Assembly (NCBI GenBank): GCA_017403955.1
Contig: JAFRDH010000025.1
Location: 71,294 to 135,293, forward strand
Length of the DNA stretch: 64,000 nucleotides
Origin: Mogibacterium sp.
GTDB taxonomy: Bacteria > Bacillota > Clostridia > Peptostreptococcales > Anaerovoracaceae
Reading direction: 5' to 3'
Shown: positions 2,206 to 5,351 of the stretch, piece after piece
Numbering within the stretch: position 1 is the stretch's first letter
Layout of the letters: each line of letters begins with the position of its first letter
Notes under the pieces: generated by a model
What the model saw: the letters and a program-made list of their open reading frames with translations, nothing else
Database searches by the model: none
Told to the model about the DNA's origin: nothing
Translations under genes and position numbers: made by a program

Positions 2206-3363
2206 ATGAAAATCTATAGTTTTGGGAGTCTTGAAAACGGCAGAAAGGCCGGTTTATATATCCTGAAAAATTCAAACGGGATGTCAGCGGAGGTCACGGA
2301 TTATGGCGCTGCGCTGGTAAGATTGATCGTGCCTGATAAAGACGGCACGAAAAGGGACGTTGTTCTCGGTTATGACGATGTTGCCGGTTATGAGAAAGGA
2401 CACGGCTCGCTCGGCGCTACAGTCGGACGTGTTGCCAACAGAATAGGCAATGCATCATTCAGGCTAAACGGCAAAGAATACAAACTGACTGCTAATAACG
2501 GAACGAACTGCCTGCACGGCGGAAGAGATCCATACAACAAGAGGATGTGGGATGCCGCTATCCCATTCGGGAAAATCAGCTCTGGAAGCGTTGCAGCTAA
2601 AGTCAATGCAGTCGAAAGTATGAACGACGGGCTGCCTGCTTACGTGCAAAGTGATCTGAACGGAGACAGTATCAAGTTTTGCCTCGACAGTCCTGACGGA
2701 GATCAGGGATTCCCGGGAAATCTGCACATCGAAGTGACCTATACCCTGACCAACAACAACGAATTGCACATAGAATATAGAGCTGTCAGTGATGCCGATA
2801 CTGCGCTCAATCTGACGAATCACAGCTATTTCAATCTGAACGGACATAACAGCAAGTCGGTTCTTGATCATGTATGCTCGATAAAGGCGGACTGCTTCAC
2901 TCCAAGCGATGAGATCCTGCTTCCTACAGGCGATCTGCAGAGCGTTCTGGAGACACCGATGGATTTCCGCATCGGCAAGGAGTTCTCCAAGGATATGGAT
3001 GTACAATACAATCAGCTCAGATTCGCAGGAGGATACGATCATAACTATGCGATCGACGGCTGGGATGAACCGGCAGGCGAAGGAGAAAAAGGTTTCTGTA
3101 AGTATCGTGAAGCAGCGGTCCTGAAGTCCGAAGAGAGCGGGATCAAAATGACGGTACTGACTGACCTTCCGGGAATGCAGCTTTATACATCAAATGGCCT
3201 GAACAATGAGAAAGGTAAAGGCGGCGTTGTTTACATGAAACAATGCGCTGCGTGCTTCGAGACACAGTTCTGGCCGGATTCGATCAACAAGGAAAACTTC
3301 CCGGGCGGCGTGCTCAAAGCAGGCGAAGAATTCTACTCAAAAACAACATACCGCTTCGAATAG
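2206..3363 (+). CDS. galM: Aldose 1-epimerase (galactose mutarotase)
   Basis: Mutarotase motifs are present: NCLHGG, LTNHSYFNLNG and ETQFWPDSINK. I place the start at ATG 2206, preceded by GGAGGG, rather than at the track start 2113, which lies inside the upstream gene. Confidence 0.85.
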   Translation: MKIYSFGSLENGRKAGLYILKNSNGMSAEVTDYGAALVRLIVPDKDGTKRDVVLGYDDVAGYEKGHGSLGATVGRVANRIGNASFRLNGKEYKLTANNGTNCLHGGRDPYNKRMWDAAIPFGKISSGSVAAKVNAVESMNDGLPAYVQSDLNGDSIKFCLDSPDGDQGFPGNLHIEVTYTLTNNNELHIEYRAVSDADTALNLTNHSYFNLNGHNSKSVLDHVCSIKADCFTPSDEILLPTGDLQSVLETPMDFRIGKEFSKDMDVQYNQLRFAGGYDHNYAIDGWDEPAGEGEKGFCKYREAAVLKSEESGIKMTVLTDLPGMQLYTSNGLNNEKGKGGVVYMKQCAACFETQFWPDSINKENFPGGVLKAGEEFYSKTTYRFE

Positions 3364-3885
3364 GAGACCGGGGACGGTTCTCTGTCTCCTTCACGCGATC
3401 TCCAGAGCAAAAGTTATCGGGAAGCATATGATCCGGGAAATATCATAATAGAGCCTTAAAAGGGTTACTTTTTTAACCCCAAAGGCTCTATTTTGCATTT
3501 CGAGGGGTTATCAGTATTTTGGCAAAGCTAGTCTTTTGTATATTCATTCGCTCCTATAAATAATTAATCATCATAATTAGTCCTGACTGATAGATCAATT
3601 CCGCTTTTGCTTGTTCATATGCATTTCTTTGGCTTCCAGGCATAAAAATGAGTCTCTCAGCACGGCGATAGATAAACGACTGGCTTTTCACATACATGAT
3701 ATGTTCAATGAGCGATAACCCCATTAAAACGAAAAAAGAGAAAAAGGATTATTTATTTGACCCAAAACTGTCTAATTGTAAGGATAAAGGTTATTTATAA
3801 TTATTCACGTCTCAAAACCTTATAGCAAAATTCAACTACAATTGTTTCTCAAAAGTGTGTCAATGAGAACCGTCCCCGGTCTCCT
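3362..3885. repeat. Perfect 21-bp inverted repeats (3362-3382 and 3865-3885) bounding a 482-bp AT-rich segment
   Basis: AGGAGACCGGGGACGGTTCTC at 3362-3382 has its exact reverse complement GAGAACCGTCCCCGGTCTCCT at 3865-3885. The bases just outside both ends mismatch. The left arm overlaps the galM stop codon (3361-3363). Confidence 0.9.
3448..3495 (+). terminator. Rho-independent terminator of galM (inside the IR-bounded segment)
   Basis: ATAGAGCCTT-AAAA-GGGTTA-CTTTTT-TAACCC-CA-AAGGCTCTAT forms a nested hairpin followed by TTTTG. Confidence 0.65.
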
Positions 3886-3944
3886 TGTTTTATTAAAATT
3901 CATTAATACTGGGCCGTATAAGGGAAAAGCTAAACATATGTTAA

Positions 3945-3974
3945 TTGACCTTAAAGCCTTGCAATTGTTAGAAT
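3945..3974 (+). promoter_or_regulatory. Sigma-A-type promoter candidate for the CHAP protein gene
   Basis: TTGACC (3945-3950), an 18-nt spacer, then TAGAAT (3969-3974), about 45 nt upstream of ATG 4020. It lies outside the inverted-repeat segment. Confidence 0.4.
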
Positions 3975-4019
3975 TCCAATGCATAAGGCGAATAATATCC
4001 TGTTATGAGGGGGCCGGTT

Positions 4020-5351
4020 ATGAATATGAGAGATATACGGAAAAAGATTGCAAGCAGCATATTATGTATGGTGCTGGCTTTGGCGATGATAGTGCCGTCA
4101 GCATTTTCTTTTGATGCTTACGGACTGGATGATCAGGCAGGCAGCGCCAGCAAGACGGTCGCTGCTGCTAAGCTCGACACTGCAACAGAGCTTACGATAA
4201 ATGGAAGCAATTTTGCTTTCAGCCAGAGCGTGATAACAAATGAATTCCTCGATTACGACAGATTCACAGATACCCTGAAAGCTTCGGGCAACAGGAAGAG
4301 CATCAAGCTCAAATGGAAGTCTGTAAAAAATAAGAACGGGATCGCGGGATATATTATCGTGAGAAAAGATCTGAACGGAAGCACCTGGCGTCAGATCGCA
4401 AAGGTCAACCGCAACAAGAAGACTTTTACAGATAAGACCGCAAAGACCAAGAACAAAGTATACAGCTACATGCTGGTTCCATACGCAAATGTCGGCACAG
4501 CTGTCAAAATAGCGAAGCCTTCGCAGTGGGCAAGTGCGGCCACGACCAAGAGCAAGAAAAAGAATGTAGAAAAGGTCCGTCTCAAGAGAGCGGCAAAGGG
4601 TTCTGCTGTCAGGGTCGGAGCAAAGACTACAGTCGCGATCAAATTCTGCAAGAAGCCGGTAAGCAAGAGCATCAGATGGTCCAGCTCAAACCCTGCAGTC
4701 GCTAAAGTTTACAAGGGAACGATCACCGGCGTAAGCGAGGGAACCGCTACGATTTATGCGAGAACTCATGCAGGATATGTGCTGAAGTTCAATATTGTAG
4801 TTGTCAAAGGCGGAACAGCCAAGGGAATGCTCGATGTCATGAGGAGTTGGCTCGGCTACAGTTACTATAATCAGAAGAACAGAGGTATCGTAGATATCTA
4901 CAATTCATTTATGCCTCTTCCGGGCGGATATGAAATGCAGTATTATGATGCATGGTGCGACTGCACTATCAGTGCGGCAGCCATTGTTTCCGGTAATGAG
5001 GACAAAATCGGCAGACATTGCAATGTTCCTGCACATGTTAAAATGTTCAAGAAGATGGGTATCTGGATCGAGGGCTGCAAGACAACACCGCAGCCTGGTG
5101 ATATAATCGTATTCAACTGGTACCCAAGCAGCAAGAATAATGCGAGCCACATCGGTATCGTCGAATCTGTCGAAGGCAATCAGGTCACGACACTGGAAGG
5201 CAATATGGGCATCGGCATCCTCAGCAGAAGAACTTTCACAGTCGGATGGAAGTATGTCAGAGGTTATGCAAGACCTAACGACATCCTTGACGGCGGTGAT
5301 GGGCCTGAGGACGAGCAGACACCGGAAGAAACACCGGCTGCAGCGAACTAA
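4020..5351 (+). CDS. Secreted modular cell-wall hydrolase: signal/TM anchor, FN3-like, Big_2 and C-terminal CHAP domain
   Basis: N-terminal hydrophobic segment: ILCMVLALAMIVPSAFSF. FN3-like region: KSIKLKWKSVKNKNGIAGYIIVRK..VYSYMLVPYA. Big_2 region: IRWSSSNPAVAKVYKGTITGVSEGTATIYA. CHAP region: AWCDCTISAAA ... GDIIVFNW..ASHIGIVESVEGNQVTTLEGN. I prefer the start at ATG 4020, 6 nt after GAGGGGG, over the track start 4005. Confidence 0.8.
   Translation: MNMRDIRKKIASSILCMVLALAMIVPSAFSFDAYGLDDQAGSASKTVAAAKLDTATELTINGSNFAFSQSVITNEFLDYDRFTDTLKASGNRKSIKLKWKSVKNKNGIAGYIIVRKDLNGSTWRQIAKVNRNKKTFTDKTAKTKNKVYSYMLVPYANVGTAVKIAKPSQWASAATTKSKKKNVEKVRLKRAAKGSAVRVGAKTTVAIKFCKKPVSKSIRWSSSNPAVAKVYKGTITGVSEGTATIYARTHAGYVLKFNIVVVKGGTAKGMLDVMRSWLGYSYYNQKNRGIVDIYNSFMPLPGGYEMQYYDAWCDCTISAAAIVSGNEDKIGRHCNVPAHVKMFKKMGIWIEGCKTTPQPGDIIVFNWYPSSKNNASHIGIVESVEGNQVTTLEGNMGIGILSRRTFTVGWKYVRGYARPNDILDGGDGPEDEQTPEETPAAAN

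Follow-up and report, generated by a model that had tools for sequence, protein, structure and literature searches.

A perfect 21-nt inverted repeat between galM and a CHAP hydrolase gene of a ruminant-gut Mogibacterium: a possible static insertion at a terminator hairpin

Background

In C. difficile the recombinase gene recV is encoded away from the two invertible switches, those of cwpV and flgB, with which it is associated. Switches of this kind served as the model for the initial annotation of the locus described here, which lies in a 64,000-nucleotide (nt) stretch of DNA from Mogibacterium sp. (hereafter the window; GenBank assembly GCA_017403955.1, contig JAFRDH010000025.1, positions 71,294 to 135,293). 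The locus consists of a perfect inverted repeat (IR) that bounds a unit of 524 bp between galM and a gene for a cell-wall hydrolase with a CHAP domain (the CHAP gene), and it had been proposed to be an invertible or mobile cassette. Our preferred explanation, to which we give an even chance of being correct, is that the unit entered the galM terminator hairpin as an insertion specific to this lineage and is static, with an IR that originated from a duplicated half-stem and was later extended by strand-switch copying.

The cwpV switch has imperfect 21-bp IRs with a spacing of 195 bp and a distance of 57 bp to the start codon; it lies between the promoter and the open reading frame (ORF), and terminator formation in the 5' untranslated region (UTR) depends on its orientation (PMC2784873). 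RecV acts on this switch and on the flgB switch (PMC2784873, PMC7446863). The locus in Mogibacterium resembles the cwpV switch in that 21-bp IRs, a few hundred bp apart, are located upstream of a cell-wall protein gene of the Clostridia, with no recombinase found nearby. It differs in that the segment is located upstream of a promoter conserved across species, the IR is perfect, no inverted copy was seen and the IR is lost in the closest other strain. The promoter invertons of the fimS and PhaseFinder type likewise consist of a short IR pair around a few hundred bp of intergenic DNA beside surface-structure genes, whereas the segment described here contains no outward promoter, is closed by a bidirectional terminator and was observed in one orientation.

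Two further comparisons concern the origin of the repeat rather than a switch. Bacterial miniature inverted-repeat transposable elements (MITEs), such as the Correia elements and RUP, are non-coding, measure ~0.1-0.6 kb, carry terminal IRs and are present or absent between lineages, as is the segment. In contrast to these, it is single-copy, has no target-site duplication on the outside, extends with one arm over a host stop codon and comes with no cognate insertion sequence that we could find. Finally, template switching homogenises imperfect IR arms into perfect ones, a process known as quasipalindrome correction (PMC5941160, PMC8604942, PMC7202029). Here the parallels are an imperfect 9-nt IR in the closest strain against the perfect, abruptly ending 21-nt IR of the window, and the replacement of several nucleotides in one arm by the exact complement of the other. 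Unlike the documented short-range events, however, the spacer is ~480 nt long, and the event is read from two haplotypes.

Results

All positions given are those of the window, and labels L001 to L024 denote comparison loci. The exact reverse complement of AGGAGACCGGGGACGGTTCTC (3362-3382) is located at 3865-3885, so that two arms of 21 nt with 100% complementarity are found 482 nt apart, as the initial annotation had stated. A search of the 64 kb with the 21-mer at up to 3 mismatches returned the two arms only, and 0 of 100 shuffles gave a match. No other perfect IR of 16 nt or longer, with arms up to 3 kb apart, exists in the window; by our own arithmetic (~64,000 x 3,000 / 4^21) a chance occurrence is expected ~4e-5 times. 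Because the pair recurs in six other spanning contigs, obtained from different samples and with different assemblers, it is real DNA and an assembly artefact is excluded.

Comparison with related species shows how much DNA is involved. Four relatives (L010, L011, L012 and L024), which are different species with a galM identity of 72-75%, have the same gene order with a galM-CHAP spacing of only 135-190 nt, against 656 nt in the window. Relative to these sister species the segment thus appears as discrete extra DNA; the comparison gives no exact empty site. Intermediate strains, at 75-99% galM identity or 68-98% CHAP identity, were absent from the protein collection. The left arm does overlap the galM stop codon, as had been noted (TAG at 3361-3363), and this stop is located at the same codon position in the relatives (L010, L012 and L024). 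The leftmost bases of the arm (AG of TAG) are therefore part of the host DNA rather than the end of something inserted. As a separate observation, one relative with 72% identity (L024) has the 3' end of galM (GCTTCGAATAGCG) duplicated within its short spacer (2520-2600 of that locus), which suggests that the spacer is prone to rearrangement in other lineages too.

On the downstream side, homology restarts 6 nt past the right arm, at a 17-nt box (ATTAAAATTCATTAATA), and runs through the promoter of the CHAP gene to its start codon. The box is the same in the window, L009, L010, L012 and L024, where it forms the upstream border of the conserved CHAP regulatory region, and may be a UP element or an operator. 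The CHAP proteins of these five lineages are only 60-68% identical. Since both the box and the promoter begin downstream of the right arm, the segment is not part of the CHAP 5' UTR. The initial annotation had already placed this promoter outside the segment, and with its conservation across five lineages (TTGACC-18-TAGAAT) the supposed likeness to cwpV is lost: the defining position of that class, between promoter and ORF, was tested and the segment is not found there, so that it is not of the cwpV class.

The arms themselves are composite. The left arm starts with a 7-nt part S (AGGAGAC), followed by a 14-nt part L (CGGGGACGGTTCTC); the right arm consists of L' (GAGAACCGTCCCCG), which is the exact complement of L, and S' (GTCTCCT), after which the sequence continues with TTGTTTTATT. 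In the window and L009 haplotypes alike, GTCTCCT at 3384-3390 is the local pairing partner of the outermost 7 nt of the left arm, and the resulting hairpin starts within the galM stop codon (-17.1 kcal/mol for the 46-nt test sequence 3355-3400). Given that GTCTCCT and the subsequent T at the 3' side of this hairpin recur in the right arm at 3879-3886, the outer third of the IR reads as a second, direct copy of the 3' half-stem of the local hairpin. The earlier statement that a flanking direct repeat is lacking hence holds for the DNA outside the arms, where the flanks (...TTCGAAT and TGTTTTA...) show no duplication, but it had overlooked this offset repeat of 8 nt (GTCTCCTT). If one copy of GTCTCCTT is removed in silico together with the DNA between the copies, what remains is a stem-loop followed by UUGUUUUAUU, which is predicted to have the geometry of a terminator. 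The distance from stop codon to box would then be 35-54 nt, close to the 41-63 nt found in the relatives. The right arm also folds as a small hairpin of its own (-10.2 kcal/mol) with a U-rich tract after it, just upstream of the CHAP regulatory region; the left arm hairpin is without a U-tract. Each arm is a quasi-palindrome, GAGACCG-GGGA-CGGT(T)CTC.

Further evidence comes from L009 (Logan SRR17035133), the closest other strain, with 99% amino acid (aa) identity and 2.5% nucleotide divergence in galM. Its interior has the same orientation and is 95.4% identical to that of the window. On the left side (AGGAGACAGTATACGTTGTCTCC; fold of -14.2 kcal/mol) the stem is the same and the loop is unrelated. 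On the right side GAGAACCGTCCATGGTGACACAGAACCGTCTGTCTCCTT is followed by an extra canonical terminator, GGGCTGTCGGTCGACAGTCC and T7 (L009 3802-3830), which precedes the conserved CHAP box and is absent from the window. As a result, L009 has an IR of 9 nt only (AGGAGACAG / CTGTCTCCT) with the outer boundaries as in the window, and a direct repeat of 9 nt, TGTCTCCTT, present twice. Between the two haplotypes 14-31% of the positions in the arms differ, in addition to a 41-nt indel, and no part of the locus changes faster than the arms. The opposite is expected of functional recombination sites or transposon ends, which should be the conserved part of an element. That L009 keeps the interior with its IR reduced to 9 nt speaks against the switch that had been suggested initially.

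The complement of L is partly common to both haplotypes on the right (GAGAACCGTCC), whereas L on the left is confined to the window type; copying in the right-to-left direction would fit this pattern. In another locus, L023, a CHAP allele like that of L009 is joined to a right arm of the window type, which suggests that arm types have been reassorted among backgrounds.

Orientation was tested with junction 41-mers in which the arm is bordered by 8 nt of outer flank and 12 nt of interior; since the two arms do not differ, junction k-mers without the outer flank cannot discriminate between the orientations. Forward junctions are present in six spanning contigs (ERZ28019072, ERZ28654157, ERZ27256761, ERZ28653997, ERZ28653894 and Logan SRR12529045) and in four partial ones, at the left arm in ERZ28018714 and at the right arm in GCA_017407765.1, SRR12529039 and SRR33263723. 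Inverted junctions (CTTCGAATAGGAGACCGGGGACGGTTCTCATTGACACACTT and GTGAAGGAGACAGAGAACCGTCCCCGGTCTCCTTGTTTTAT) were found in 0 of 12 consensus assemblies, which comprise these ten contigs, the window and L009, all in forward orientation; as many as ten more places of similar sequence lie outside this count. For P0183, the contigs do not extend as far as the arms. A look-up of the 58-aa ORF expected from an inverted junction gave no record. The consensus assemblies thus argue against frequent switching, though a minority orientation could be hidden in them.

Contig ends provide a second view on structural variation. Between galM and dtd, 4 of the 11 contig termini are located within 14 nt of an arm (3371, 3395, 3851 and 3852); they are the ends of L006, L008, L018 and L023, four independent assemblies, and the clustering has a post-hoc P of ~0.002. 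These termini adjoin sites at which the haplotypes differ (3369 onward, 3394, 3852 and 3854), whereas inversion should break the assembly graph exactly at 3382 and 3865. We therefore attribute them to haplotype mixing: co-occurring haplotypes in one sample likely suffice to explain the contig ends.

Copies elsewhere were sought in several collections. Among 185,579 species genomes (GTDB) the 21-mer occurs in this species and as one unpaired match only, and never as a pair elsewhere. That match to the arm, 22 nt long and exact (GAGAACCGTCCCCGGTCTCCTT on the plus strand), is found at 1555-1580 of L001 (JAFWES010000056.1), a metagenome-assembled genome (MAG) of Clostridia from sheep duodenum; it is located within the last ten codons of a LysR-type ORF, with T5 next on the coding strand. 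By our arithmetic 0.07-0.3 exact matches of 21-22 nt are expected by chance in 596 Gb, so the match proves nothing; it may be a chance occurrence or a shared hairpin module. The 21-mer arm had no match in JGI metagenomes or IMG/VR viral contigs, a 24-mer from the conserved core of the interior was absent from JGI metagenomes and viral contigs, and the interior gave no blastn match in phage and plasmid collections. Sensitive blastn of the segment against the window and unrelated loci retrieved the arms only. The exact 56-aa ORF of the interior is carried by 11 contigs, and in all 11 the site is the galM-CHAP locus, which makes this a single-locus element. Of the cassette proposed initially, the discrete extra DNA is retained, and inversion and active mobility are not.

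The interior had been described as strongly AT-rich. Its GC content of 0.349 is ordinary among the intergenic DNA of the window (mean 0.385) and therefore no mark of foreign origin. The hairpin reported in it is indeed strong, and it proved to be bidirectional (-26.0 kcal/mol on the plus and -30.2 on the minus strand; z-scores of -5.2 and -6.2). No outward-facing promoter was found inside the segment: the only site above threshold reads inward on the minus strand, from 3828 to 3800, and leads into a 56-codon ORF (3724 to 3554) and then into the bidirectional terminator. The hexamers of this promoter-like site are identical in L009. A TTGACC at 3757 has no -10 element and is mutated in L009.

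Both small ORFs listed previously, of 56 aa on the minus strand and 34 aa on the plus strand, are present. The 56-codon ORF is probably not translated; no Shine-Dalgarno sequence precedes it, and it is broken at codon 37 in L005 and at codon 47 in L009. An exhaustive phmmer search of 1.84 billion cluster representatives retrieved only the 56-aa ORF itself, and a Pfam scan of four small ORFs gave nothing credible. The stop in L005 is one of 6 substitutions within 38 nt (window 3598-3635), all transversions and three of them T to G, in a sequence that is otherwise 99.9% identical; this cluster is probably a low-coverage sequencing error. Between the window and L009 all 22 interior substitutions fall outside one block of 153 nt, and the interior outside that block differs at 6.7% (galM, 2.5%). 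The block covers the first 46 codons of the minus-strand ORF and 14 nt upstream, and might encode a small RNA or a peptide, or else have been exchanged by recent recombination.

No unusual structure was found for the interior alone on either strand (z +1.6 and +0.2). Rfam 15, which includes ROOL, GOLLD and OLE, gave no match at E up to 5 in 3200-4200 and none at gathering score across the window. We also considered the whole segment as a decayed long palindrome and rejected this, as its global score against its own reverse complement (16) is below the shuffle mean of 20.8.

Table 1. Features of the galM-CHAP intergenic region and the adjoining genes, in window coordinates.
Feature	Position	Strand	Remarks
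galM (aldose 1-epimerase, 385 aa)	2206..3363	+	PF01263 in precomputed annotation
Left arm	3362..3382	+	S (3362-3368) and L (3369-3382)
galM-proximal hairpin S-L-T-S' (AGGAGAC ... GTCTCCT)	3362..3390	+	starts within stop codon
Direct repeat, copy 1 (GTCTCCTT)	3384..3391	+	3' half of hairpin stem; just inside left arm
Terminator-type hairpin, strong	3444..3495	both	T-rich tail on either strand
Orphan 56-codon ORF	3554..3724	-	no Pfam match, no upstream Shine-Dalgarno
Block of 153 nt	3586..3738	.	no substitution between window and L009
34-aa ORF	3696..3800	+	overlaps 56-codon ORF
Promoter-like site TTGCTA-17-AATAAT	3800..3828	-	consensus match only; reads into interior toward terminator
Right arm	3865..3885	+	L' (3865-3878) and S' (3879-3885)
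Direct repeat, copy 2 (GTCTCCTT)	3879..3886	+	outer part of right arm
Invariant box (ATTAAAATTCATTAATA)	3892..3908	+	starts conserved CHAP regulatory region
CHAP promoter, sigma-A type	3945..3974	+	TTGACC, 18-nt spacer, TG-n-TAGAAT; conserved in five lineages
CHAP gene (secreted Big_2 and CHAP-domain cell-wall hydrolase, 443 aa)	4020..5351	+	PF05257, PF02368

The locus is situated near recF-gyrB-gyrA, in the order DUF4298, isochorismatase, galM, segment, Big_2/CHAP hydrolase, dtd and YkuD transpeptidase, and the contigs that contain it originate from goat, sheep and other ruminant gut metagenomes. A protein search with the galM product yielded 7,717 homologues. The start of the CHAP gene is called identically in public contigs, and the exact CHAP protein of the window gave no record in the look-up. 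The remainder of the window is a large gene cluster for cell-wall polysaccharide and teichoic acid. This cell-envelope glycopolymer cluster (13321-51381) includes six CDP-glycerol glycerophosphotransferase (Glyphos_transf) genes, LicD, a choline kinase/NTP-transferase fusion, two IspD-like cytidylyltransferases and an ABC-2 exporter, together with several ORFs of 340-640 aa without Pfam match. The initial annotation saw no recombinase in the window, and we found no recombinase or transposase Pfam family in the 40 window ORFs scanned, in the first 9 kb as covered by a precomputed annotation, or in 4 kb of upstream DNA; a short minus-strand ORF at 1823-2125 falls outside both the scan and that annotation.

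Discussion

The combination of a conserved stop codon, a direct half-stem copy and a haplotype with a shorter IR might be accounted for by a history in three steps, all of which we infer and none of which was observed. The ancestor would have had a short galM 3' region, in which S, a loop and S' (AGGAGAC...GTCTCCT) started within the stop codon, with a U-rich tract and then the conserved CHAP regulatory region downstream. In the second step, ~490 nt of non-coding DNA would have been inserted directly after S', with duplication of GTCTCCTT (8-9 nt). This insert would have brought the inward-reading promoter-like site, an orphan ORF or RNA and the strong bidirectional terminator, and one copy of S' would have come to lie ~500 nt from S. 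The result would be an IR of 7-9 nt, a state still found in L009. In the third step, strand-switch copying of the quasipalindrome type, primed by pairing of S with S', would have replaced the loop of the left hairpin in the window haplotype. The new loop would be the exact complement of the 14 nt beside the right S', which would yield a perfect 21-nt IR with abrupt ends. At present the GC-rich arm hairpins and the internal terminator would insulate a small, self-contained transcription unit from galM and the CHAP gene, with the latter transcribed from its own conserved promoter downstream of the segment.

Several points weigh against this history. It is built on two to three haplotypes, and its polarity could be reversed, with the perfect IR being ancestral and that of L009 decayed. 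Known quasipalindrome corrections usually span tens of bases and not ~500. The direct-repeat model gives an insert devoid of terminal IRs and so suggests no mechanism for the insertion, and a source for the inserted DNA was not found in any collection searched. Position 8 of the arms covaries between the haplotypes, being C with G in the window and A with T in L009, which could reflect selection for pairing or for identical recombination sites. In addition, the clustering of contig ends at the arms could be due to structural heterogeneity.

Among the alternatives, the segment might be the relic of a non-autonomous, MITE-like element, with the 21-nt arms as its terminal IRs, that entered once between galM and the CHAP regulatory region and has since lost its mobility. 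In line with such elements, the segment has perfect terminal IRs and, at 524 bp, a typical size; coding capacity is lacking, and the segment is absent at the orthologous site in the four relatives. The arm match in the unrelated ruminant-gut MAG (L001) could be added to this, at its chance expectation of ~0.07-0.3, but it is unpaired and placed inside the 3' end of an ORF. The position of the repeats is also difficult to reconcile with this explanation: there is no target-site duplication outside the arms, the sole direct repeat is offset, with one of its copies on the interior side of the left arm, and this arm starts with bases of the conserved galM stop codon. A second copy is missing from the 64 kb, from the 185,579 species genomes (as a pair) and from the viral, JGI, phage and plasmid collections, and the window encodes no transposase. 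Moreover, the arms diverge ~5-10 times faster than the interior, which is not expected from neutral decay of a dead element. Overall we regard a MITE relic as unlikely.

It might also be argued that the arms are kept identical by selection, either as paired hairpin insulators or terminators or as two operators of a dimeric regulator, with no rearrangement involved. Each arm does fold as a hairpin, the right one with its U-rich tract upstream of the CHAP regulatory region, and the different canonical terminator of L009 at the same place (GGGCTGTCGGTCGACAGTCC followed by T7) suggests that a terminator is needed there; the covariation at position 8 points in the same direction. On the other hand, the left hairpin is without a U-tract, no credible site resembling GAGACCG-N4-CGGTCTC was found upstream of other genes in the window, and between strains no part of the locus is less conserved than the arms. 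Selection on a hairpin also requires no 21-nt identity that includes the loop. This explanation seems improbable to us.

The inverton that was suggested initially would need a tyrosine or serine recombinase, encoded at a distance, that acts on the quasi-palindromic 21-nt sites, whereby a flip would, for example, couple or uncouple the orphan unit from galM read-through. The length, spacing and perfection of the IR are suitable, the arms are quasi-palindromic as recombinase sites are, cell-envelope genes are nearby and RecV provides the precedent for an enzyme that acts from elsewhere. Contig breaks do cluster at the arms, and consensus assemblies may mask a minority orientation. Nonetheless, the inverted junction is missing from all 12 assemblies, L009 retains the interior and not the IR, and no recombinase was found in the 64 kb or the 4 kb upstream. 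With the CHAP promoter and the 17-nt box downstream of the segment, termination of the CHAP transcript in the manner of cwpV is impossible. The sole inner promoter-like site reads inward and meets the bidirectional terminator in either orientation; because this terminator closes the unit and there is no outward promoter, a flip would leave transcription of galM and the CHAP gene unchanged. We therefore consider an inverton very unlikely. A specific form of it, in which a distal invertase of these uncultured rumen Anaerovoracaceae toggles not a promoter but the self-contained orphan unit, between antisense isolation and co-transcription with galM, and L009 is a naturally phase-locked variant, is equally doubtful. 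A true inverton, were there one here, would carry RecV-like phase variation over to the uncultured Peptostreptococcales of the rumen.

Finally, pairing of the arms within one transcript, so as to close a structured domain of 482 nt, is extremely unlikely: 3355-3895 folded as a whole does pair the arms (-148.6 kcal/mol, z -6.0), but this z-score is due to the arms and the terminator, with the interior alone being unremarkable, a strong bidirectional terminator lies between the arms, Rfam offers no match and the arms are not conserved in L009.

Conclusions

If the unit is indeed a static insertion at the galM terminator hairpin, the locus would serve as a cautionary example, as programs that search for invertons flag exactly such a perfect 21-bp IR upstream of a surface-protein gene. 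Such a pair could come from a duplicated terminator half-stem and subsequent strand-switch homogenisation, without any switch being involved. Three questions would then be cheap discriminators: whether the IR is kept in sister strains, whether the conserved promoter of the neighbouring gene lies inside or outside the segment, and whether the outermost bases of the IR are host sequence.

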